NCBI GenBank assembly: GCA_035390665.1
Contig: DAOOUC010000006.1
Span: forward strand, 17,688 to 49,687
Source: an archaeon
Lineage (GTDB): Archaea > Iainarchaeota > Iainarchaeia > Iainarchaeales > CSSED10-239
Direction of reading: 5' to 3'
DNA: 32,000 nt
Shown: positions 2,260-12,795 of the stretch, piece by piece
Numbering within the stretch: position 1 is the stretch's first letter
How the letters are laid out: each line of letters opens with the position of its first letter
Translations under genes and position numbers: made by a program
The notes under the pieces: model-generated
Databases searched by the model: none
Seen by the model: only the letters and a program-made list of their open reading frames with translations
What the model was told of the DNA's origin: nothing

Positions 2260-2503
2260 AGTAGCTGGTGTTTTGGTTGTTTTGGGTTTCTAATCCAAAA
2301 AGGAAAGTCCACTCACTAGGTTAAAATTGTTTTTTGAGTAGAAAGGAACACGGCTTCTTGTCATTCAACAGATGATGTGTTAAACTGATGGACAAGAAGA
2401 GAGGCTGAAAAATTGCAAAAGACAATTCTAGTGCAAGGAAGTCAAACTTCTGCTTAGACAAATAAACCAAATTAGTACAGAAAGTGGCTTATAGCCAGTT
2501 ACT
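2260..2503 (+). ncRNA. rnpB: RNase P RNA (compact, about 244 nt)
   Basis: Universal CR-I GGAAAGTCC at 2302-2310. CR-IV/V ACAGAAAGTGGCTTAT at 2477-2492. P1 pairing AGTAGCTGG (2260-2268) with CCAGTTACT (2495-2503). P2 TTTGGTT with AACCAAA. P3 hairpin TTTTGG-gtttctaat-CCAAAA. The region is otherwise ORF-free. Confidence 0.85.
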
Positions 2504-3122
2504 ATATTTTTTCTAATCTTTTTATAGATCTTTTTAAATTAATTCTGGCTTTTTTTTCATATTTTTTTCTATAGAAATCAGTATTATAAATATTTGATTT
2601 TTGTAAAAAGTAAAGTAATACTTTTATTCTTCCATCTTTGTATTTTTCTAACGGAACCCAATAATATTCTTTTCTAATATTATTTTCATATTTATCAAAT
2701 TCTTTTTTGGATTGCCCAAAAATACACAAGTCAATATCTTGTAATAATCTTTCTTCCTTTTTTCTAGATGTTTTCTGATGTTTTGTAGAAAGTATTAATG
2801 ATGTCGTTTTATTTATTAATTTATTAGATAATTTTGCTTTTTTTAAAACTTTTACAAGATATTTTGCAGACATTTCTTCGTTATCATTATCTTTTGTATC
2901 GTAGATTATATCGTGATACCAAATAGCAAGTTCAATTAAATCAAAATCATATTTGTCTTTAGTTTTTTTAAAATTATCTAATTCTTTTAAACACATTTTT
3001 ATATGTGATAAGTTATGATAATATCTTTTTTTGGAATAAAGTGTATTTAAATTATTAAATTCAATAATTGGATCACTTTTCGCATTAATTTGCTTCCATA
3101 ACTTAATAAATTTTGATTTCAT
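2502..3122 (-). CDS. HD-domain metal-dependent phosphohydrolase (COG4339-like)
   Basis: YHNLSHI ... LAIWYHDIIYD gives the His...His-Asp signature in an all-helical 206-aa protein. Its start overlaps the stop of the upstream gene by 4 nt (3119-3122). Confidence 0.6.
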   Translation of the reverse strand: MKSKFIKLWKQINAKSDPIIEFNNLNTLYSKKRYYHNLSHIKMCLKELDNFKKTKDKYDFDLIELAIWYHDIIYDTKDNDNEEMSAKYLVKVLKKAKLSNKLINKTTSLILSTKHQKTSRKKEERLLQDIDLCIFGQSKKEFDKYENNIRKEYYWVPLEKYKDGRIKVLLYFLQKSNIYNTDFYRKKYEKKARINLKRSIKRLEKI

Positions 3123-4258
3123 TTTAGATTTAATTCTTTTATTATATTGTCGATTATTTTATTTAGAACTTCTTTATTTTTATTAAATTCTTCAGAATTA
3201 TCAAAAATCCACAATTTTCCGTAATTATTTTTTACTATTATTTCTTCTAAATTATTTTTCTTTTGTATATAGTCAAATTGGCTATTTAATCTTCTATCTA
3301 TCTGTTCACTAGTTAGTTTTCTAGAGAATAGTCTTTGTTTTTGAATATCTTTATCTACTTTAACAACTAATACATTATTATTACAAAGATATGTAAGATT
3401 AGATTCTGCAATTAATGCAGCATTAATTATTATGAGTCCTTTTTTACCATATATTTCTTTTCTTAATCTTACTAATATTGGAGTATACATTATTTCATTT
3501 AATTGCTTTAATTTTTCATTATTATTAAATACAATTTCTCCAAGAATTTTGCGATCTATTGTTCCATCAGATTTCTTTATATTTTCTCCAAAAGTTTTAA
3601 TTAATTGATTTCTGATTTTCTCATATTTTTCATCTTTTAATTCAGAGAGAATCTTGTGCCCCAAATGATCTAATTCAATATTGTGTGCCTCTATTCCTTT
3701 TTCTTTACATAGTTCTAAAATTTGTTCACAAACAAAAGATTTCCCACTTCCAATTTCTCCAGTTACTCCTATAATAAACTGATTAGATAATTTTCTTTCA
3801 ATCTCTTGCTTAACATTTAAAGGTACATATTCATGTACAAATCCTTGTTCTTTCTGAATTCCTTTTACTACACTTGAACTTACATGAGCAAGTTCTGGTC
3901 TTGCAAAAAGAATAAAAGTATCAATACCTAATTTTTGACTATCTCCTACTTGATGTAAAATATTTTCATAATCAAAATCAGCAGAATTTCTTACACCTTT
4001 AACTATAACATCTATGTCATTTTCGTAAGCATAATCCACTAAAAGTCCAGAAAAAGAGACTACTTTTACATTATTTAAATCAATTAAGGATTTTTTAGCA
4101 AGAGATAGTCTTTCTTCTAGAGTAAACAAATAATTCTTACTGGGATTTACTCCAATTCCAACAACGACTTTATCAAAAACTTTAGAAGCTCTCTTAATTA
4201 TGTCAATATGTCCAAAAGTAATTGGATCTCCAGAAAATGCATACATTGCTGTTGTCAT
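3119..4258 (-). CDS. coaD/coaE: Bifunctional phosphopantetheine adenylyltransferase / dephospho-CoA kinase (bacterial-type CoaD fused to CoaE)
   Basis: The N-terminal ~160 aa align by eye along their length with E. coli CoaD (AFSGDPITFGHIDIIKRA, VGIGVNPSK..LFTLEERL, VKGVRNSADFDYE, ISSSVVK). The C-terminal ~215 aa carry the CoaE P-loop IGVTGEIGSGKSF followed by ...IELDHLGH. Confidence 0.85.
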   Translation of the reverse strand: MTTAMYAFSGDPITFGHIDIIKRASKVFDKVVVGIGVNPSKNYLFTLEERLSLAKKSLIDLNNVKVVSFSGLLVDYAYENDIDVIVKGVRNSADFDYENILHQVGDSQKLGIDTFILFARPELAHVSSSVVKGIQKEQGFVHEYVPLNVKQEIERKLSNQFIIGVTGEIGSGKSFVCEQILELCKEKGIEAHNIELDHLGHKILSELKDEKYEKIRNQLIKTFGENIKKSDGTIDRKILGEIVFNNNEKLKQLNEIMYTPILVRLRKEIYGKKGLIIINAALIAESNLTYLCNNNVLVVKVDKDIQKQRLFSRKLTSEQIDRRLNSQFDYIQKKNNLEEIIVKNNYGKLWIFDNSEEFNKNKEVLNKIIDNIIKELNLK

Positions 4259-4314
4259 AAATATCTTATCTTATTATACATTTTATATTTGTTTTGATTG
4301 TTAATTTTTATATT

Positions 4315-5127
4315 ATGCCACTAAGAAATATTACTTTAGGCTCAAGATTAAGATCCAAAGTAAGAACAATTAGAAAGATAACAACAAAAGATAATGGAAA
4401 AGTAGCAATAACTGTTGATCCAAAAACAAAAACACGATTTTATACTAAAGTTGAAAAAAACCAATTTAATCTTCCTTCAAGAATCACACACATGACCCCT
4501 GAAGCCCATAGAATATTAAAAGAAAATCCAGAATTACCTAATTTTCTAAAACAAGAGCTTTCTCAAAAAGGTAAAAGAATAGATGCAAGATTAGAAACAA
4601 GAAATGGAATATTTATCTTAAGAGATTTTGAAAATAATGGTTTAACAAATAATGGAACATTTAGTTTATGGTATATGGATAAAAAAACAACCACAAATAA
4701 AACTTATTTTATAAAAAGATATCCGAATCTTACAAGTTGGGGTAATGCAGAAGCTGAATTTCTCGCGGTTAAAGAAATGGAAAGATTAGGATTTAATATA
4801 ATTAAACCACAATTTGCAATTACCGATATAGCAAAAACACCTAATATTATTATTTATGATTATACTAATCTATTATCTTATCCTCAAGCAGTAATAAAAA
4901 GAAAAATAAGTGGTAGTGAAATACTTAAAATAGAAGAAACTTTTACTAAATTAGTAAAATCTCCTGCATTAAAAAATCTAAATGATTTTCACACATTTAC
5001 ATATAGGGTTTCTCCTAATAAGAACGTCTTTATTAAAAGATTATCTAATGGTAAATTAAAACTATATTTTACTGATATCTATTGGGAAGAAGAAGCATAT
5101 AAAAGAAAGAGAGAAGAATATCTATGA
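4315..5127 (+). CDS. Hypothetical protein, possible atypical kinase-like fold
   Basis: ATG at 4315 (the ORF track extends to TTG 4294). YFIKRYP...AEAEFLAVKEMERLGF...IIIYDY loosely resembles the N-lobe Lys, alphaC Glu and hinge of RIO/Kdo-type kinases. The catalytic loop is not clear. The stop overlaps the tdk start (ATGA). Confidence 0.55.
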   Translation: MPLRNITLGSRLRSKVRTIRKITTKDNGKVAITVDPKTKTRFYTKVEKNQFNLPSRITHMTPEAHRILKENPELPNFLKQELSQKGKRIDARLETRNGIFILRDFENNGLTNNGTFSLWYMDKKTTTNKTYFIKRYPNLTSWGNAEAEFLAVKEMERLGFNIIKPQFAITDIAKTPNIIIYDYTNLLSYPQAVIKRKISGSEILKIEETFTKLVKSPALKNLNDFHTFTYRVSPNKNVFIKRLSNGKLKLYFTDIYWEEEAYKRKREEYL

Positions 5128-5693
5128 GTGGAATATTAACTACAATTGTTGGGCCAATGTTTTCTGGTAAAACAACAGAACTTTTGCGTTTGATGGATAG
5201 AGAATTGATTGCTAAAAGAAGTTCAATTCTATTTAAACCAAATATAGATAATAGATACTCAAAAGAAGAGGTTGTTAACCATAACGGTATTGGAAGAAAA
5301 GCACTAATTGCTTGCTGTTCTAAAGATATTTTAAATAAAGTTTTAGAATTAGAAAAAACCGAAAATATAGAAAACATATTTATTGATGAAGTTCAATTTT
5401 TTGATTCAGGAATAACTGATGTTATTAAAAAAATTAATGATTTAGGAATAGACATATATACTTGTGGACTTAATCAAACCTTTAAAGGAGAACCATTCCC
5501 GTTTAAGGATGGAGAAAAAGACATAGGTTATCTTATGGCTATAAGTGATTATGTTATATCTATTGATGCTGTTTGTAATGAATGTGGAAACAAAGCCACA
5601 AAGACATATAGGAAAGGAAAGGAAGAAGAAACAGTAATTGTTGGTGGGCAAGACTTGTATCAAGCAAGATGTAAAAATTGTTGGAATAAATAA
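5124..5693 (+). CDS. tdk: Thymidine kinase (TK1 family)
   Basis: P-loop GPMFSGKTTELLR, the DEVQFF motif, and a C-terminal zinc-binding pair CNECG...ARCKNCW. Confidence 0.9.
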   Translation: MSGILTTIVGPMFSGKTTELLRLMDRELIAKRSSILFKPNIDNRYSKEEVVNHNGIGRKALIACCSKDILNKVLELEKTENIENIFIDEVQFFDSGITDVIKKINDLGIDIYTCGLNQTFKGEPFPFKDGEKDIGYLMAISDYVISIDAVCNECGNKATKTYRKGKEEETVIVGGQDLYQARCKNCWNK

Positions 5694-5751
5694 TTATATT
5701 TATAAATTATTGGGACTTATAAATTTAAAACAAAAAGGAGAAAGATAAAAT

Positions 5752-6180
5752 ATGGCAGAAGAATCAATTCAATTTATAGCAAATTTTGATAAATTTGTTT
5801 CTATTAAGAAACTAACAATTGACAAAGAAGTTGGACCAAAAGAAGTTATTGAATTTCTTACAAGTGTTCAGTTTACTACATCTCAAAAAATAAAAGACTA
5901 TATTGGTAAGATAATAGATGTTAAAAGCTTTGATGAAAAAACCAAAAAACTTTATGCACTAAATCTTGGACAATTTATGGAAGAAGTTAATTCAAATGGA
6001 ACAAAGAAAATAATTAAAGAATTTATACCTGCAACAATGGAAAAGAAAGAAGAAAAAGATGCATATATTGAACTTTTAAAAGTTTACTTGATAGAAAAAT
6101 ATGCTGCAGAAAAAAAGATAGTCATCGGGGCACACCATATTGTCTTTCCAGCAAATAAAAAGTTAATGAAGAAGAAATAA
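5752..6180 (+). CDS. Hypothetical protein (142 aa)
   Basis: AGGAG RBS upstream. A soluble Lys/Glu-rich protein with no recognised motif. It lies 1 nt upstream of the next gene. Confidence 0.55.
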   Translation: MAEESIQFIANFDKFVSIKKLTIDKEVGPKEVIEFLTSVQFTTSQKIKDYIGKIIDVKSFDEKTKKLYALNLGQFMEEVNSNGTKKIIKEFIPATMEKKEEKDAYIELLKVYLIEKYAAEKKIVIGAHHIVFPANKKLMKKK

Positions 6181-6181
6181 A

Positions 6182-7063
6182 ATGAATTTTTCAGAAAAAT
6201 TAAAACTAAGATGGGATTTATCTCTTTTCTCTCTTGTTATAACAAATATAATTGTAATTGTTATAGCTATTATTCAGAAATGGGACTTTCCAATATTGTT
6301 TTCAGTATATATAGCACAAACTCAAATAATTGCTTTCTTTTATTTCTTTAAAATAATATTTAAAAAAAACACAATAACTTATGGATTAACAATTAATAAG
6401 AAAACAATTAATCCGACAATTACTAATAAATTAATTTTAGCATTACTTTATTATGGTGGTTTTTATCTGGTTATGAGAATTGTTTATTTTTTTGCTCAGT
6501 TCTTGAGTTTTACAATGCCAGGACTGAACCTTTCTAAAATGGCAACTGCTTTTGTGGGTATTGTTATTTTTTTTATAAATCATCTAATCTCATTTATAGT
6601 TAATTTTAAAATAGATTCAGAAAAAGAAGAAACATTAAAAGAATTAATGATTGCTCCGTATTTAAGAATTATACCAATCATTATAATTAGTTTCTTTGGT
6701 ATTTTACTTAATTTTTTATCAATTATATTTTTAATATTAAAAGCAATTGTTGATATTTATAGTCATAACTATATACATCAAATGAAAGACGACTATTTGA
6801 AATATAAGGTAAAGAATAAAACAAAAGAAAATCCAAAAACAAATTTAATAAAAATTAAATCATCAGTTGCGCCTTTTGTCAAAGGTCTAGTAATCTATTG
6901 GATAGTATCTGTTGCAATTTTTATTGTTTTATTATTTTTAATATTAGGTGCAATAGTAAATTTTTGGTTTTATATAGCCTCAGGATTATCTTTAATTGTT
7001 ACAATATTACTAATTCTTGTTTTCCTTAAACATTTTAAAAGAATCAACGAGTCAGACAAATAA
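6182..7063 (+). CDS. Polytopic membrane protein, unknown function
   Basis: 293 aa with about 8 hydrophobic segments. Probably in an operon with 5752..6180. Confidence 0.6.
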   Translation: MNFSEKLKLRWDLSLFSLVITNIIVIVIAIIQKWDFPILFSVYIAQTQIIAFFYFFKIIFKKNTITYGLTINKKTINPTITNKLILALLYYGGFYLVMRIVYFFAQFLSFTMPGLNLSKMATAFVGIVIFFINHLISFIVNFKIDSEKEETLKELMIAPYLRIIPIIIISFFGILLNFLSIIFLILKAIVDIYSHNYIHQMKDDYLKYKVKNKTKENPKTNLIKIKSSVAPFVKGLVIYWIVSVAIFIVLLFLILGAIVNFWFYIASGLSLIVTILLILVFLKHFKRINESDK

Positions 7064-7082
7064 ATGGAATAAACAGTAGGTA

Positions 7083-7105
7083 TTTATATAATTTTTCTTT
7101 CTTAA
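7083..7105 (+). promoter_or_regulatory. TATA-containing box related to the tRNA-Ala boxes, upstream of tRNA-Tyr
   Basis: TTTATATAATTTTTCTTTCTTAA resembles TTTATATTTATTTCTTTAA and starts 59 nt upstream of tRNA-Tyr. A second TATA-like ATTATTATAT lies about 33 nt upstream. Confidence 0.3.
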
Positions 7106-7141
7106 TTATTATATCAAGCAATTGATTAAAAGGAAAATTAT

Positions 7142-7268
7142 CCCTCCTTAGCATAGCGGTTAGTGCGTCCGGCTGTAGACTAAAAGATTACACTCTTTTT
7201 TTGATTGTGGCAATCCACATCAAAAGGCAGTGACCGGAAGATCCCCAGTCCAAATCTGGGAGGAGGGA
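7142..7268 (+). tRNA. tRNA-Tyr (anticodon GUA) with a 54-nt intron at 37/38 (intron about 7179-7232)
   Basis: Acceptor CCCTCCT/AGGAGGG with the archaeal/eukaryal C1:G72 Tyr identity pair and A73. D arm GCAT-AGCGGTTA-GTGC. Anticodon stem TCCGG/CCGGA with loop CTGTAG|...|A (GTA at 7175-7177). T arm CCCAG-TCCAAAT-CTGGG. The splice sites sit in two 3-nt bulges (AG|A and TG|A) separated by the 4-bp helix CTGT/GCAG, which is a bulge-helix-bulge motif. Confidence 0.9.
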
Positions 7269-7276
7269 ATCCGACT
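7263..7276. repeat. Direct repeat copy 1 (attL-like), overlapping the last 6 nt of tRNA-Tyr
   Basis: GAGGGAATCCGACT is identical to 8371-8384. The +2 position (C) also matches. Confidence 0.7.
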
Positions 7277-7302
7277 TCAACTAAAACCTTCTATTTAAGT
7301 TG

Positions 7303-7409
7303 GAGTAACATATTAACTAAATAGTGTTACCTTAAATTTTTTAATTAAATAGTGTATTACTCACTAAAGTGTATTACTCGATACCTTTTTAAATATTTTG
7401 AGTAATACA
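7303..7409 (+). promoter_or_regulatory. Operator-like repeat array upstream of fic (five copies of a TGT(AT)TACTC core in two inverted pairs)
   Basis: GAGTAACA (7303-7310, inverted); AGTGTTACC (7323-7331); AGTGTATTACTC (7351-7362); AGTGTATTACTC (7368-7379); GAGTAATACA (7400-7409, inverted). The last inverted pair brackets the AT-rich TTTTTAAATATTTT (7386-7399), and its right arm overlaps the TTG at 7398. Confidence 0.5.
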
Positions 7410-7415
7410 ATTTAT

Positions 7416-8351
7416 ATGAGCTATTTATCTAAATTACAAAGAAATAATAAAACGTATTATTATCTTGTAGAGAATATTCCTGTGTCAAAAGGAAAAAGAA
7501 AGCAGATAAGAAAATATATAGGAACTGCAAAACCAACAGAGCAACAGTTATCTTTAGAATTATCAAAATTTGAAAACGAAATTAGCCCTAAGAAAAAGCA
7601 ATTGCAAGGATTTACATATTTAACTAAAGACGAAATTAAAGAAATTGATGAGATTAATTCAAATTTTTGGAAGAAATACAATACCTTAACAAAAACAGAA
7701 AAAGAAAGCTTTTGGAATAACTTCATTAGTGTTTTTGTATATAATACCAATTCAATAGAAGGTTCTACTTTAACCTTAAAAGAAGTTGAACTATTATTAT
7801 CTGAAAACATTTCTCCAAATAGACCATTAGAAGATGTATTAGAAACAAAATCTGCTAAAAGAGCAATTGATTATCTTTTAGACTATAAAGAAGATTTATC
7901 TATTGATTTAATAACCGAATTACATAAAATTTACTTTAAAGAAAGCTTTCCAGAGATTGCAGGTAAATTAAAAAGATTAAACAATAGAATAATGGGCTCA
8001 AAATTTGATACCACCCCAAAAGAATTTGTTTTAACTGACTTAAAGATATTTATTGATAATTATAATAAACTAAAAAAAGAACTACATCCAATAGAGCTTT
8101 CAGCTTGGACACATTGGGCTTTTGTTAAGATTCATCCGTTTCAAGATGGTAATGGCAGAATATCAAGATTAATAATGAACTTTGTACTTCACAAAAACAA
8201 ATATGCATTAATTGATATTAAAACCAAAGAAAAGCAAGCTTATTTTAATGCACTTGAAAGATGTAATTATACAAGCAATGGAAAACCATTAGCACAAAGA
8301 TTAGTTAGAAGATTTAAAAAACAATATCAAAATGCTTTTTCAGAACTATAA
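7416..8351 (+). CDS. fic: Fic-domain protein (AMPylase-type, class II with N-terminal inhibitory motif)
   Basis: Canonical active site HPFQDGNGRISR matches HxFx(D/E)GNGRxxR. Upstream TNSIEG matches the (S/T)xxxE(G/N) auto-inhibitory helix motif. ATG at 7416; the ORF track alternative is TTG at 7398. Confidence 0.85.
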   Translation: MSYLSKLQRNNKTYYYLVENIPVSKGKRKQIRKYIGTAKPTEQQLSLELSKFENEISPKKKQLQGFTYLTKDEIKEIDEINSNFWKKYNTLTKTEKESFWNNFISVFVYNTNSIEGSTLTLKEVELLLSENISPNRPLEDVLETKSAKRAIDYLLDYKEDLSIDLITELHKIYFKESFPEIAGKLKRLNNRIMGSKFDTTPKEFVLTDLKIFIDNYNKLKKELHPIELSAWTHWAFVKIHPFQDGNGRISRLIMNFVLHKNKYALIDIKTKEKQAYFNALERCNYTSNGKPLAQRLVRRFKKQYQNAFSEL

Positions 8352-8370
8352 ATCTTTTAATATCTTAGTA

Positions 8371-8384
8371 GAGGGAATCCGACT
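8371..8384. repeat. Direct repeat copy 2 (attR-like)
   Basis: GAGGGAATCCGACT, 20 nt downstream of the fic stop codon and identical to 7263-7276. Confidence 0.7.
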
Positions 8385-8739
8385 CCTATTTCTAAAAAGA
8401 AACTCTTTTAAATATTATGTTTTATACTTTTGTATAAATTATTAATTAAATAACTTAAAATGGAGATGATGTTAAAAGGTTCCAAGAAAGTGAAAGAAAA
8501 AGACTAGCACAAAAAGCAGAAGCAGCTAGTGAAATGCAACGACAACAGCAAAGAAAAATAGAACAATATAGGGGATTATTAAAAACTAAAATTAATAAAT
8601 AATATTAATTTAAATTATTAATAACTTTGTAAATAATTAAAGGAGTTGGTAAGAATGAAAGGAAAGTATCTACCAACTTCTAACAATGAACAGATTTATT
8701 TTTAATTAACTTTATATTCTTTTTGTTTCTCTTTCTTTT

Positions 8740-9399
8740 ATGGCTCCAGTATCTGTATCTTTTAGAAGACATGCTCAAAAGACAAGAAATGGGCATAGTA
8801 TTACTTCTAATGGAAAAAAAGATGTTAAAGATTTATCAAATAAATTATCAACTACTACAAAACTATATTCTTCTCCTGAAAATAGAACAATAGAAACCGC
8901 AGAATATCTAAAATTATTTACTCACTCAGAATATAATATAAGAGTAAGAAATATTTTACGAGGACATAAATATTTTGCAGGAAAAAGAATTAAAACCACT
9001 AAAAAAGATAATTTTCTAACTTTATTTAAAGACCTGGCTAAAAAGATTGGAATTAATGACAAATTGCTAATTAAGGTGTGGCTATCTGGGAAAGTTCCAA
9101 AAAAGATTGTTCCAAGACCAGAAGTTATTGCTGATGAAATAATAAGAGATAGATTTAGATTACCTAATAGAGTAAAAAACACAGAAAAATCAATAATCTT
9201 TGAAAACATAACACACGATATTGTTATAGCTGCTTTGTTTCAACGATTGTCTGGAGAGAAATATCATAGTCAATTTAAGGATTTACCAAAAGAATTAGAA
9301 TCTTTAAAAGTTGATATTTCAAGAGATGGAAAAGCAACCATGCAATTTAGAAATTATAAAAAAGGAATAACAGAAACATTAAAAGAAATATTAAAATAA
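8740..9399 (+). CDS. Histidine phosphatase superfamily protein (phosphoglycerate-mutase-like)
   Basis: N-terminal FRRHAQKTRNG (RHG-type catalytic motif), SSPENRTIETAEYL (compare the family motif SSPLxRAxQTAE), and a later NITHDIVIAALF (second catalytic His). Confidence 0.55.
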   Translation: MAPVSVSFRRHAQKTRNGHSITSNGKKDVKDLSNKLSTTTKLYSSPENRTIETAEYLKLFTHSEYNIRVRNILRGHKYFAGKRIKTTKKDNFLTLFKDLAKKIGINDKLLIKVWLSGKVPKKIVPRPEVIADEIIRDRFRLPNRVKNTEKSIIFENITHDIVIAALFQRLSGEKYHSQFKDLPKELESLKVDISRDGKATMQFRNYKKGITETLKEILK

Positions 9400-9400
9400 A

Positions 9401-10225
9401 TCATTTTGTTCTATAGATTCTATTTATTATTTCTATCTTCTTATCATAATCTATTGCTGTTTTATAATTATACCAGAAGATATTCATAAAGAAATTAATC
9501 CAAGTATCATCGTATATATCATAAATCAAAGTAATGTCTTTCTCTAATTCATGAAGCTTAAAATTTTTCTCTTCTTTGCTTTCTTTAAAGATAGAATGCC
9601 CACAATCAAATATAATACCTCTTAATGGTTGTAATTGATGCCTTAATTCTATTGATTTAGGATATTTTTGTAATAAAGGCAAAAGAAGATTAATATTTTT
9701 TAAAGTATCTATATCTATTCTTGCAATAATTTTAACTTTTAACCCGTTTTTTATTCTGGTCTCTAATTTATCTATAAGATTCTCATTCTTATATTTAATT
9801 TTAAGAAAAGACAGATTTCCAGATAGAAAATATACAAAATTAGATTTGTCTAGATATTCAAAAATTAATTTTGGATCAAAATCTTCTCCCTTATATAAAT
9901 GTCCATTTGATCTCTCTTTAGAAACATATTGAAAAATTTCCATAAAACTGAAATCTTTCTTATAATTTGTACTTTTTATTTTTGTAAATAAAATATTTTC
10001 TATTTCAGTAGAAGAAACTTTATTAGTTGAATAAACCAGTTTTATAATGTTATATCCTGCTTTTATGTTCTTGATATCAATTAATCCAGTATTCTTTCTA
10101 AACTCGTCTACATATTTCTCTGCAGTTACCCAACTAATTCCTAGTTCTTTAGAAATTTCCTGTATAGTTCTTGGTTCAACTTCTACAAGTTTAATTATTT
10201 CATTTGCTTTTTCTTGTGATATCAT
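9401..10225 (-). CDS. Winged-HTH domain protein, putative transcriptional regulator
   Basis: The N-terminus EPRTIQEISKELGISWVTAEKYVDEF is a typical HTH. The ~200-aa C-terminal domain is unrecognised. Divergent from the radical SAM gene. Confidence 0.55.
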   Translation of the reverse strand: MISQEKANEIIKLVEVEPRTIQEISKELGISWVTAEKYVDEFRKNTGLIDIKNIKAGYNIIKLVYSTNKVSSTEIENILFTKIKSTNYKKDFSFMEIFQYVSKERSNGHLYKGEDFDPKLIFEYLDKSNFVYFLSGNLSFLKIKYKNENLIDKLETRIKNGLKVKIIARIDIDTLKNINLLLPLLQKYPKSIELRHQLQPLRGIIFDCGHSIFKESKEEKNFKLHELEKDITLIYDIYDDTWINFFMNIFWYNYKTAIDYDKKIEIINRIYRTK

Positions 10226-10311
10226 AGAAATATTTAGCCCCGAAATATTTAAATATATATTTTAATAAAATAAAACCAATTAAAATAAACAATAAAACAC
10301 ATAACAAATCT

Positions 10312-11352
10312 ATGTTAGAAGACAACTACTTTACAAAAGAATATATTTTCAATAAAATCCCAATTAGATTTATGTTAACTGAAAAATGTAATTTAAGATG
10401 TCACATGTGTAGTGCTGATGGATTAGGCATAGGAAAAGTAAATTGCAATCAATCAAAAGAAATGAATTTAGAGAAAGCAAAAATATTAGTGGATCTTTTA
10501 TCTGAAATAAATTATTCTGGAGAAATTACCTTCTCTGGCGGAGAACCAATGGTTTATTCTTATTTTTATGAATTGATTGAATATATTTTAAAAAACAACA
10601 AAAATACAATAAAAGTAATAACAAATGGCACAATCCCATTCAAAGAAAATTTCTTCACAGATAGAAAAAAAGCACAAATATCTATTCATTCTTTAGATTA
10701 TAAATCTTGGAATAAGATTACTCAAGGAAATATAATCCAATTCAATAACCTTGTTAAAAATTTAGAAAAAATGAACAAAGAACAAGTACATAACATTAAT
10801 GTAGTAATTCATAAAGGAATAAATGATAGTAATGAAGAACTATTTTCTTTATTTGAATTTTCAAAAAATAATAATTTTCATTTAAGATTGTTTAAGTTAT
10901 TTCCATATACCGAAAATATGTATAATAAATATAAAGAAATTAATAAAGAATATTTGAATGATTTAAAATTAAAAAAATCCCCCAATAAAGTGAGATGGCA
11001 TAATCAAGATGAATATTCTCAATTGGAAAGATATTATTTTAATGATAATCTAAATCAAGAAATAGATGTTGCATCTTGTCCTTGCTTTAGTGGAGAATGT
11101 AGTAGTTGCTATAAATGGCATTTTCTTCAAATTACTTCTGATTTAAAAATAAAAACTTGTCTGGAAAGAGATAATTACATCGATTTAAATGAAGCAATAA
11201 TAAAAAAAGATTCAAAATTACTTTGGGAAAAAATAATAGAATCTAGAATTGCAATCTTTAACCATGGAAAAGAAAGCCCACCTTTAAGGAATCATCCGTT
11301 TTTTAATTGTGGATTGAATACAATAAAAATTATAAATAATTTAAGACACTAA
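10312..11352 (+). CDS. Radical SAM protein, MoaA-like architecture
   Basis: CNLRCHMC (CX3CX2C) near the N-terminus, the FSGGEPM SAM-binding motif, VITNG, and a C-terminal Cys cluster CPCFSGECSSC-x16-C resembling the MoaA auxiliary-cluster region (ITSDLKIKTCL versus LTxDGKLxxCL). Confidence 0.7.
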   Translation: MLEDNYFTKEYIFNKIPIRFMLTEKCNLRCHMCSADGLGIGKVNCNQSKEMNLEKAKILVDLLSEINYSGEITFSGGEPMVYSYFYELIEYILKNNKNTIKVITNGTIPFKENFFTDRKKAQISIHSLDYKSWNKITQGNIIQFNNLVKNLEKMNKEQVHNINVVIHKGINDSNEELFSLFEFSKNNNFHLRLFKLFPYTENMYNKYKEINKEYLNDLKLKKSPNKVRWHNQDEYSQLERYYFNDNLNQEIDVASCPCFSGECSSCYKWHFLQITSDLKIKTCLERDNYIDLNEAIIKKDSKLLWEKIIESRIAIFNHGKESPPLRNHPFFNCGLNTIKIINNLRH

Positions 11353-11430
11353 CTAATTTCTGTTTATAAACTAATTGTTTCTTAAATATATATTACTATA
11401 TTATTAATATAATTTAAAAAGGAAAAAAAT

Positions 11431-12795
11431 ATGACTAGTTCTAATGAGAGCTTTGATGGCTTGGTCAAAGATAAACAAATATTACAAGCAATAACAAATA
11501 TCGGTATTACTAAACCAACAGAAATACAAGAAAAAGTAATTCCATTAATTTTAGAGGGGAAAAACGTAATTGCTCAATCTGCTACAGGAACAGGAAAAAC
11601 AATTGCTTTTTTAGCAGGAATTTTACCTTCTGTTAATAAAATAAAAAAAGTGCAATGTTTAATTATTGTTCCAACAAGAGAACTTGCAAATCAAGTTTAT
11701 GAAGAAACAAAAAAGATTGGAAAAGTAAAAGATTTACAAGCATGTGCTGTTTTTGGTGGTGCATCAATTAATAATCAAGCAAAACAATTAAGATATGCAG
11801 ATATTGTTATTGGAACGCCAGGAAGACTAATTGATCAAATAGATAGAGGAAACCTAAGATTAGACAATATCAAATATCTAGTATTAGATGAAGCAGACAG
11901 AATGTGCGATATGGGATTTTATGAAGACATTTCAAAGATAATCACGCAAGTTCCAAAAGAAAGACAAACTCTTCTTTTTTCAGCAACAATAACAGATGAT
12001 GTATCTAAACTTGAAAGAGATTATATACCTAAACCACAAAAAATAAAAGTACAAACAAATGTAGATCCTAAAAATCTTTTACAAGAATATTATATTGTTA
12101 AATCAAATCAAAAATTTTCATTACTTTTACATTTAGTTAAACAACACAATAAAAAATCAATTATTTTTTGTAATACAAGAAGCGAAGTTGATGTTTTATA
12201 TAATAATTTTAGAGAACACAGGGTTGAATGCTTTAGATTACATGGTGGATTAGAGCAAAACAAAAGAAGTGCTACAATTGAAAAGTATCAAGATCATAAA
12301 GATGCAGTATTAATCTCAAGTGATGTTTCTGCAAGAGGAATACATGTTGATAATTTAGAATATATCTATAATTATGATTTACCTAAAGACAATACACAAT
12401 ATATTCACAGAATTGGTAGAACAGCAAGAGCTGGAAAAAAAGGAAAAGCAATTGCAATAATTACAAATAAAGAAGAAGAAGATTTCTTAAGAATGTGTAA
12501 GAAATTTGGATTTTCCGTTGAACATAAGCAATTACCGGCATTAGTACCAATTGCTCTAAAAAGAACAACAGAAGAACAAAAAAGACTAGAAGAAAGAAAT
12601 CAAGATGGAAGAAATAGATATAGAGAAAGAAGAGAACACTTTAGTAAAGGACCAAGAGATAGGCAAAAAGAAAATTTTAAGAAAAAATTCGTAGGAGAAT
12701 TAACAGAAGAAGAAATCAAGAAACAAAAAACAGATTTTTTCAGACATAAAAGAAAAATTAGACAAAACAAATACTCTAAAGGAGGAAGAAGATAA
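11431..12795 (+). CDS. DEAD-box ATP-dependent RNA helicase
   Basis: Q-motif region GITKPTEIQ, motif I AQSATGTGKT, PTRELA, motif II DEAD, motif III SAT, motif VI HRIGRTARAG. Arg/Lys-rich C-terminal tail. Confidence 0.9.
   Translation: MTSSNESFDGLVKDKQILQAITNIGITKPTEIQEKVIPLILEGKNVIAQSATGTGKTIAFLAGILPSVNKIKKVQCLIIVPTRELANQVYEETKKIGKVKDLQACAVFGGASINNQAKQLRYADIVIGTPGRLIDQIDRGNLRLDNIKYLVLDEADRMCDMGFYEDISKIITQVPKERQTLLFSATITDDVSKLERDYIPKPQKIKVQTNVDPKNLLQEYYIVKSNQKFSLLLHLVKQHNKKSIIFCNTRSEVDVLYNNFREHRVECFRLHGGLEQNKRSATIEKYQDHKDAVLISSDVSARGIHVDNLEYIYNYDLPKDNTQYIHRIGRTARAGKKGKAIAIITNKEEEDFLRMCKKFGFSVEHKQLPALVPIALKRTTEEQKRLEERNQDGRNRYRERREHFSKGPRDRQKENFKKKFVGELTEEEIKKQKTDFFRHKRKIRQNKYSKGGRR

Follow-up and report, generated by a model that had tools for sequence, protein, structure and literature searches.

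How does a lone gene with no recombination machinery of its own come to lie between two copies of a tRNA end in an archaeal genome? DPANN archaea have tiny genomes, and the routes by which they gain genes are little understood. The locus considered here lies in a 32,000-nt window (the whole stretch of DNA that was analyzed) of contig DAOOUC010000006.1, from a member of the Diapherotrites whose assembly comprises 848 kb in 21 contigs, is 86% complete and has a guanine plus cytosine (GC) content of ~25%. A tRNA-Tyr gene in this window is followed by a 1.1-kb segment that encodes only a Fic protein and is closed by a second copy of the tRNA 3′ end. We consider it fairly probable (roughly 60%) that this segment, positions 7277–8370, is an integrase-less cassette that arrived as a small unit by way of an integrase supplied in trans. 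Site-specific recombination by a tyrosine integrase would have placed the non-autonomous cassette into the tRNA-Tyr 3′ end; the two repeats would be attL, an attachment (att) site restoring the 3′ end of the tRNA, and a decayed attR; and the enzyme would have come from elsewhere, from a family that sits behind tRNA-Tyr across the archaeal order. Genomes and loci are referred to below by our own handles (G and L numbers).

The Two Repeats and the Empty Site

The initial annotation had reported an exact 14-mer, GAGGGAATCCGACT, at 7263–7276 and 8371–8384, overlapping the last 6 nt of tRNA-Tyr, and had taken its recurrence to lie beyond chance and to mark integration at a tRNA 3′ end; the positions, the statistics and the comparison with relatives described below all bear this out. 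The first copy consists of the final 6 nt of the tRNA (7263–7268) and the 8 nt downstream, and the second begins 20 nt past the Fic stop codon. Dinucleotide shuffling gives 0.05 expected matches at two or fewer mismatches, with two or more matches in 0/100 shuffles, and simple arithmetic at 25% GC gives the 14-mer a probability of ~1.7e-10 per position, or ~3e-4 expected occurrences per genome. A third copy, with up to one mismatch allowed, was found nowhere in the 848-kb genome, and a search of the same genome returned no other copy of the tRNA-Tyr 3′ end. Chance recurrence and a generic motif, the latter named by the annotation as grounds for abandoning its reading, were rejected by the shuffles and by this genome-wide uniqueness. 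Around the 14-mer, an exact core, the match extends imperfectly to 23 nt, with 19/23 positions identical (7254–7276 and 8362–8384).

The tRNA carries an intron. Rfam RF00005 scores 48.1 bits over 7142–7268, with 57 nt inserted in the anticodon loop, and ARAGORN run in its intron mode (-i) calls tRNA-Tyr(GTA), where its default setting misses the gene. An Rfam scan of several loci overlooked intron-bearing tRNAs, and the combination of Rfam on the window with ARAGORN -i was required; the labels of ARAGORN -i are unreliable for long-intron tRNAs (Asp, Ser, and Asn in L058, L069, and L033), which were typed by their 3′ halves instead. Between the repeats, the list of open reading frames (ORFs) and Pfam yield no integrase and only a repeat-rich leader and the Fic gene, as had been annotated. 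The comparison of base composition that had been proposed was carried out and proved uninformative, with a GC content of 0.25–0.30 in the cassette against 0.21–0.26 in the flanks and no foreign signal.

Relatives provide the empty site that the annotation had suggested looking for. Positions 6182–9399 were searched against 40 relatives and the fetched loci were mapped back with blastn. Two genomes of the same genus, G002 and G006, keep the tRNA and the upstream DUF2666 and DUF6498 genes, have no Fic, and resume synteny downstream. Their tRNA continues as GGGAATCC(G/A)ACT and then (C/T)CTATTTCTA, and these are empty sites because the tRNA joins directly to the sequence found right of the second repeat in the window; it is precisely the DNA enclosed by the repeats that they are missing. 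That Fic is merely an ancestral neighbor of tRNA-Tyr, the second 14-mer being a chance or regulatory sequence such as a terminator or processing signal, is to our mind barely conceivable. It would sit well with the unremarkable GC content of the cassette and with a Fic phylogeny that follows genera within the family, whereas the restriction of the 14-mer to two places in the genome, the precise absence of the inter-repeat segment from syntenic relatives, and the way the copy after Fic runs on into the sequence that follows the tRNA in those relatives all speak against it.

Two further relatives, G009 and G004, carry the Fic cassette as in the window and share its left end. In G009 the Fic stop codon is followed by the same degenerate att copy (ATCTTAGTAGAGGGAAT), by 131 nt in which a conserved piece of 55 nt lies, and by an exact 27-nt repeat of the tRNA end; a loss of 131 nt, bounded by GAGGGAAT, sets the window apart. 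By this alignment the single hybrid att copy of the window is the expected product of recombination between two copies of the G009 type. An earlier view of the attR as the result of a plain microhomology deletion was refined accordingly, since two att copies follow Fic in G009 and a single hybrid does so in the window. The segment has no integration or transfer genes and its attL is intact, while its attR is reduced to 14–23 nt without a T-arm and that of G009 is fuller; because of this short attR, the Fic cassette of the window can probably no longer be excised.

The left end of the inserted DNA (7277–7350) is retained in G009 and G004 and missing from G002 and G006. It forms a hairpin, TCAACT..AGTTGG, whose first arm reads CCAACT in G009 and G004, and AGTTGG/CCAACT hexamers also flank the att copy on the side of the integrase start fragment described below. 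As judged from this sharing, the hairpin hexamers may be integrase arm sites. The same hexamers make a hairpin within that start fragment in the window (AGTTGGTA..TACCAACT at 8644–8678). In cassettes of this genus an additional inverted pair of operator-like half-sites, GGAGTAACA and GTGTTACC, lies between attL and the canonical operator.

An Integrase at the Same Attachment Site

A search for tyrosine integrases, likewise proposed by the annotation, led to a sister species with a cognate enzyme at this att site. The tRNA of G007 stands where a contig ends; 10.8 kb from it the tRNA 3′ end recurs, bordered on the right by the shared flank CCGACTCCTATTTCT. The first ORF behind the tRNA is a tyrosine recombinase (PF00589, 3e-22; L019:13626-14615(-)), and the 10.8-kb element further encodes an N6-methylase/HsdS fusion and a protein of 525 aa that matches DUF5906 weakly. 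Neither a TATA box nor an ATG belongs to the integrase frame itself, which is open through the tRNA end, and a start piece of 26 codons (AAGGAG, ATG, MKEKYPPTSNNEPITRSSPTESGRRE) lies directly left of the far att copy (L019 ~3806–3900(-)) and reads in frame through att into the integrase. The same arrangement is seen in another family: G187 (L186, L187, and L188), with an integrase 59–61% identical, has a 33-codon start piece beside two att copies that joins in frame to the C-terminal part, Int(C), behind tRNA-Tyr. Between the tRNA end and the conserved start of Int(C) in this branch there is neither a start codon nor a TATA box. These reading frames indicate that the integrase branch of this genus is split by its own integration into an N-terminal fragment, Int(N), and Int(C), the “suicidal” arrangement, and Int(N) would be left beside each attR. 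The idea that every integrase of the family is split proved wrong, as a sister branch (e.g., G133) is unsplit and has its own TATA box and an ATG 70–90 nt past the tRNA.

Among the 20 loci of the integrase family that were examined, 18 lie directly behind tRNA-Tyr and two behind tRNA-Glu. PF00589 is the only domain reported for the split integrases, even at E-values up to 5, and PF16795 is not found; the closest NCBIfam model is XerA_Arch (2e-25), below its cut-off. The conserved 55-nt start of Int(N) precedes att copies in G003, G007, and G009 at 82–96% identity, and in the window's own genome its remnant at 8640–8692 occurs once. That genome has a single PF00589 gene, on another contig (161 bits), which is probably XerA. 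A different genus, G020, carries an integrase fragment behind tRNA-Tyr that is 99% identical to that of G007 (G020:C14:18348-18884), and at G020:C22:6152-6205 an Int(N) piece 96% identical to that of the window. These near-identities suggest a very recent transfer of the element between genera.

The presence of an 11-kb element of a suitable kind at the very same site in G007 raises a different possibility, namely that a larger autonomous element (a plasmid or virus equipped with integrase and replication genes) once integrated at tRNA-Tyr and was whittled down in place to Fic and att scars, with no 1-kb unit ever moving. The Int(N) remnants would be the debris expected of such a history, and the cis-mobilizable elements (CIMEs) of bacteria are themselves defined as decay products (PMC5704250). 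We regard this as somewhat unlikely, for reasons that come from the distribution of the Fic unit in other genomes.

Spread of the Fic Unit Across the Order

A search of 196 genomes found orthologs of the Fic protein (46–62% amino acid identity beyond the family) in ~55 and some homolog in 128; the source names given for the organisms read Candidatus Diapherotrites archaeon. The counts that follow refer to 57 oriented loci of Fic orthologs. Wherever a tRNA lies within 1.5 kb of Fic it is upstream and co-oriented (19/19), its type being Tyr, Cys, Ser (CGA or TGA), or Arg. Ten of these 19 tRNAs end 59–62 nt before the Fic ATG, where the first operator repeat begins, so that the operator starts at the last base of the tRNA. 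Two others end 83–84 nt before the ATG (Arg at 84 nt), and in the group of the window's own genus the distance is 146–152 nt. A tRNA 3′ fragment stands at the Fic junction in ~10 more loci, several of which have an intact tRNA-Tyr 0.8–3.2 kb upstream. Furthermore, by a 14-mer test, a second copy of the tRNA end follows 25–1091 nt after Fic in at least 10 loci, against 0–4 of 57 in permuted controls (Table 1). In L053 two additional tRNA-end copies lie further on, one of them adjoining a second Fic paralog. At loci showing no second repeat, ordinary host genes come next after Fic.

Some Fic paralogs lie in similar settings. In the array of L053 (G022:C2:12000-24000) the paralog (~8585–9616), 34% identical, starts directly behind a tRNA-Tyr 3′ fragment, and in G035 (L051) a paralog 34–36% identical with a different operator word lies 70 nt past a tRNA. 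The window's own genome (G000) has a paralog at G000:C3:84199-85086 (L100), 36% identical, with no adjoining tRNA.

Movement is visible in the extent of DNA shared between host families. Locus pairs from different families are 79–90% identical in DNA from about −62 to the Fic stop codon only; the shared stretch sometimes takes in 10–25 nt of the tRNA end, and in most pairs the flanks have no detectable similarity. In the Fic tree, host families are intermingled on branches that are very short, and tRNA type is clustered on it (Tyr, 5 changes against 10.2 in shuffles). Even in the window's own family, Fic is 84–85% identical between genera, compared with 73–81% for the neighboring DEAD-box helicase within the genus. 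These sequence comparisons clearly show horizontal movement of a ~1-kb unit of operator, promoter, and Fic across families.

Since the shared DNA ends at the operator and the stop codon, either transfer of a small unit or repeated identical decay is required, and it is here that whittling in place of a larger element becomes difficult. Deletion bias combined with selection on the tRNA and the operator alone would yield a precise junction, and in G003 deletion has trimmed a neighboring HicB gene up to the Fic operator. Yet cassettes of 1.05–1.1 kb whose repeats are well kept turn up repeatedly in unrelated families (exact over 29 nt in L095, 13–14 nt in L058 and L062). An integrase within a Fic-bearing, att-bounded segment was found in none of the 57 loci, no IMG/VR contig has Fic inside an integrase-bearing element (the best match there, at 39% identity, is no close ortholog), and no autonomous carrier of Fic was found in the 57 loci, IMG/VR, or genome contigs beyond three relatives. 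Whether the window holds a decayed element or a minimal cassette, the choice that the initial annotation had left standing, cannot be fully separated on this copy alone, and the order-wide comparison leans toward a minimal traveling unit.

Transfer could also have proceeded with no recombinase, by homologous recombination in the conserved tRNA (or another gene end) on one side and illegitimate joining downstream, the repeats being the gene ends of donor and recipient. The Fic unit does lie behind several tRNA species, tRNA genes are the best-conserved anchors between families, and some loci without a tRNA piece have other direct repeats of 18–40 nt flanking Fic (L071, L083, L089, L098, and L099). 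We nevertheless find this route quite improbable, in that the right-hand repeat of this genus comes with an integrase 5′ fragment and arm-like hairpins, an integrase-bearing element uses the same att site, and the near-identical 90-nt end modules in the arrays of G133 are a signature of site-specific stacking. A casposon or a target-duplicating transposon was considered and rejected: no Cas1 was found in the window's own genome (86% complete), terminal inverted repeats are absent, and the repeats measure anywhere between 13 and 43 nt, depending on the locus.

Cassette Stacks Behind tRNA-Tyr

What lies behind tRNA-Tyr varies from genome to genome, and several arrays, such as those of G003 and G133, hold more than one cassette, each closed by a conserved end sequence and a tRNA 3′ copy. 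Within the genus of the window, G006 has a HicB/HicA pair followed by a 19-nt copy of the tRNA end, G007 has its 10.8-kb element followed by a HicBA cassette, and G002 has a 156-aa ORF followed by Int(N) and a degenerate tRNA end. The longest series is that of G003, in which radical S-adenosylmethionine (SAM) and TyrRS/TrpRS-like genes are followed by Int(N) with att, a DUF429 gene, a second Int(N), an ORF, the remnant of a truncated HicB joined to the Fic operator, Fic, and pyruvate kinase. The site in the window would be a stack of the same kind, running from the tRNA through the Fic cassette and its attR to the remnant of an older, G002-type cassette (8385–8639), an Int(N) remnant, and the host flank.

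The clearest stack is found in another family. In G133 (L050, G133:C9:8000-19599, ~2474–11549) tRNA-Tyr is followed by HicBA, att, two small ORFs, att, Fic, att, an AAA_14/DUF4143 ATPase, att, an integrase element, and att, which makes at least five att-bounded units. Each att copy (a 21-nt tRNA end) is preceded by a near-identical end sequence of ~70 nt, giving end modules of ~90 nt. The layout of G133 resembles an integron.

Housekeeping-looking genes are present in the array region of G003 (L018, G003:C2:15500-27500, 2298–5024 and 8181–9587): the radical SAM and class I Tyr/Trp-tRNA synthetase genes lie between tRNA-Tyr and Int(N) with att, and pyruvate kinase comes directly after Fic. Such genes may have been captured in arrays, or att copies may have driven rearrangements.

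Table 1. Coordinates of the features in the window (first nine rows) and position of the second tRNA-end repeat behind Fic orthologs at other loci.
Feature or locus	Position	Strand	Description	Basis
tRNA-Tyr(GTA) gene	7142–7268	+	Intron ~55–60 nt; chromosomal attachment target (attB)	Rfam RF00005, ARAGORN -i
attL	7254–7276	+	tRNA 3′ end plus 8 nt; exact 14-mer 7263–7276	Aligned with empty sites and attR copies of relatives
Left end of inserted DNA	7277–7350	+	TCAACT..AGTTGG hairpin, then extra operator-like half-sites; missing from empty sites	
Fic promoter and operator	7351–7415	+	Direct AGTGTATTACTC at 7351–7362 and 7368–7379; TATA-like TTTTTAAATA at 7386–7395; inverted GAGTAATACA at 7400–7409	
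Fic gene	7416–8351	+	311 aa, ATG start; class II, FICD-like predicted fold, additional N-terminal three-strand sheet and helix	
Decayed attR	8362–8384	+	19/23 identical to attL; exact 14-mer 8371–8384; right flank is the post-tRNA sequence of G002 and G006	
Older cassette remnant	8385–8639	+	Homologous to the start of the G002 cassette with the 156-aa ORF; no long ORF left	blastn map, ORF list
Int(N) remnant	8640–8692	+	Shine-Dalgarno AAGGAG, ATG at 8656, MKGKYLPTSNNE..; following tRNA copy lost here	
Host flank resumes	8693–9399	+	TTAATTAACTTTATAT, common to G006; histidine-phosphatase-like ORF 8740–9399	
L062	25 nt past Fic stop		Repeat of 14 nt; no gene between	
L095	42 nt past Fic stop		Repeat of 29 nt, exact; no gene between	
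L058	53 nt past Fic stop		Repeat of 13 nt; no gene between	
L055	385 nt past Fic stop		Repeat of 14 nt	
L084	455 nt past Fic stop		Repeat of 14 nt; low-molecular-weight phosphatase between	
L063	652 nt past Fic stop		Repeat of 15 nt; 166-aa ORF, no Pfam match	
L072	929 nt past Fic stop		Repeat of 22 nt; 210-aa ORF, no Pfam match	
L053	1091 nt past Fic stop		Repeat of 43 nt; weakly RuBisCO-like ORF	

Points Against a Cassette Mobilized in Trans

Several observations weigh against the arrival of the Fic segment as a small unit served by an integrase in trans. The integrase family of the G007 type is absent from the window's own assembled genome (86% complete), the attR of the window is too short to be judged functional, and eight other assemblies with an identical Fic protein have only the filled site. 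Within the family of the window (f1) the Fic tree follows genera, and vertical descent would fit there. The Fic unit of G003 lies within the truncated HicB remnant with no att copy alongside, and in G012, G021, and G014 no tRNA piece accompanies it; because of these four genomes, we accept that the unit also relocates or is trimmed by plain deletion. The exact junction of tRNA and operator may even have arisen convergently, by deletion in streamlined genomes. Finally, one cargo is found behind four tRNA species, and the account would need a single cassette family to have acquired an att sequence matching each of them.

The Fic Protein and Its Leader

By its motifs and its modeled fold, the cargo is a class II, FICD-like Fic protein and a predicted AMPylase. 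The ORF at 7416–8351 matches Pfam Fic at 9e-18, and in the PDB it matches 3cuc (5.6e-24) and FICD (2.6e-20) by sequence. The initial annotation had described a complete active site and an inhibitory motif, and both are present: the catalytic motif HPFQDGNGRISR fits HxFx(D/E)GNGRxxR and is invariant across 37 orthologs, and TNSIEG lies at residues 111–116, N-terminal to the core in the same chain, with NSIEGST invariant across the same 37. An AlphaFold2 model built with these orthologs has a predicted local distance difference test (pLDDT) score of 93 and consists of three N-terminal strands and a long helix (residues 3–64) followed by the FICD-like domain; Foldseek matches it to 6i7g (4e-14, template modeling score 0.69). 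No credible Pfam match was obtained for residues 1–103; the N-terminal domain may resemble the AP2-like domains with which integrases bind arm sites. A single-sequence model of the N-terminal domain alone was all-helical with a pLDDT of 58, contradicted the confident full-length model, and was set aside. Among the defense candidates of PADLOC the protein matches PDC-S04 (5.7e-37) and SoFic (1.6e-20).

The leader has a recurrent layout, in which two words lie in direct orientation near −62 and −45, followed by a TTTTTAAA box and by the word in inverted orientation near −16, and the exact words are found in 37/57 orthologous loci. The operator word varies with the Fic clade, and paralogs carry different words. 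At L100 in the own genome, the leader of the paralog bears another doubled word, TGTAGCCA, which fits recognition of a separate operator by each Fic. From this analysis we infer that Fic probably represses its own promoter through the N-terminal domain. CccR is an experimentally tested example of a Fic autorepressor toxin (PMC9755527). The cassette would be a self-contained unit of operator, promoter, and Fic, autorepressed and probably serving as an addiction or anti-virus module; we propose that it is because of such a role that Fic alone persists in it.

Relation to Known Systems and Significance

The general kind of element is already known. CIMEs and tandem accretion have been described at the tRNA-gene att sites of integrative and conjugative elements and integrative and mobilizable elements in Firmicutes (PMC5704250), and gene capture is known in archaea. 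As in CIMEs, the segment that attL and attR enclose at the 3′ end of a tRNA gene is without integration or transfer genes and is stacked with elements that use the same att (PMC5704250). In contrast to CIMEs, the host is an archaeon, the segment is a single 1-kb gene with its operator, attR is decayed, and the cargo lies behind at least four tRNA species. What is new is the integrase using the same att site, the split 5′ fragment within the cassette ends, and the order-wide census.

Archaeal gene capture by “suicidal” integrases is known from the type of the Sulfolobus spindle-shaped viruses (SSV) (She et al. 2001, as cited in PMC8371274; PMC7253208). In both cases the integrase gene comes apart into Int(N) and Int(C) on integration at a tRNA, and trapped elements decay to integrase fragments and tRNA-end repeats. 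PF16795 (Phage_integr_3) is the domain of the known suicidal integrases, and the system has been described in hyperthermophiles, with DPANN unmentioned (PMC8371274). The integrase here differs in being a PF00589, Xer-like enzyme of a metagenome-derived DPANN host (Diapherotrites) whose N-terminal piece spans only 26–33 codons. If split integrases of PF00589 in such a lineage are confirmed, the “suicidal integrase” phenomenon would be wider than the hyperthermophile families.

The ssrA-specific tandem islands of Dehalococcoides offer a bacterial likeness in a streamlined genome, with small islands reportedly stacked at one small-RNA gene and each bounded by its 3′-end repeat; those islands differ in targeting the transfer-messenger RNA gene and in carrying integrases and several genes (PMC3146451). 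Among Fic proteins, the one in the window shares HPFx(D/E)GNGRxxR, TxxxEG, and a FICD-like predicted fold with FICD/HYPE, BT_2513 (3CUC), CccR (PMC9755527), SoFic, and PDC-S04. Its operator repeats lie at the Fic gene's own promoter, as in CccR, whereas its extra domain (three strands and a helix) is N-terminal and that of CccR is a C-terminal helix-turn-helix.

An integron consists of an IntI integrase with an adjacent attI site and of cassettes that end in attC. The arrays described here are similar in that single-gene cassettes form a one-way stack beside a fixed site, end in recombination modules, and are associated with an Xer-related tyrosine recombinase. They differ in having no IntI, attI, or attC; the counterpart of attC is a tRNA 3′ copy with or without the integrase 5′ fragment, the cassettes have their own promoters, and the integrase is not a fixed neighbor. 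An integron in the strict sense was rejected, with the integrase far below the cut-offs of integron-integrase models, repeats that are tRNA 3′ copies, and promoter-bearing cassettes. A looser, integron-like form of capture is unlikely in our estimation and is put forward tentatively. In it, tRNA 3′ ends of Diapherotrites and other DPANN archaea would act as platforms for promoter-bearing single-gene cassettes (Fic foremost, with HicAB, AAA/DUF4143 ATPases, and small enzymes), each ending in an integrase 5′ fragment and a tRNA-end copy. These would be stacked, shuffled, and passed between families as ~1-kb minicircles by Xer-like integrases acting in trans, in some of which the split would have arisen separately from that of the SSV family, and the N-terminal domain of Fic, whose binding repeats start where att ends, might help control recombination.

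Even the more modest account of a cassette mobilized in trans has consequences for gene gain in these archaea. One tRNA site within one genus holds Fic, HicAB, an ORF of 156 aa, or an 11-kb element. The occurrence of a 1-kb self-regulated Fic unit in many families points to cheap, cassette-level exchange of toxin- or defense-type genes. With an integrase 5′ fragment in the attR copies and the enzyme at the same site in a sister species, supply in trans is a testable model. Elsewhere in the window, three tRNA-Ala genes (CGC, AGC, and UGC) stand in tandem at 679–1151.

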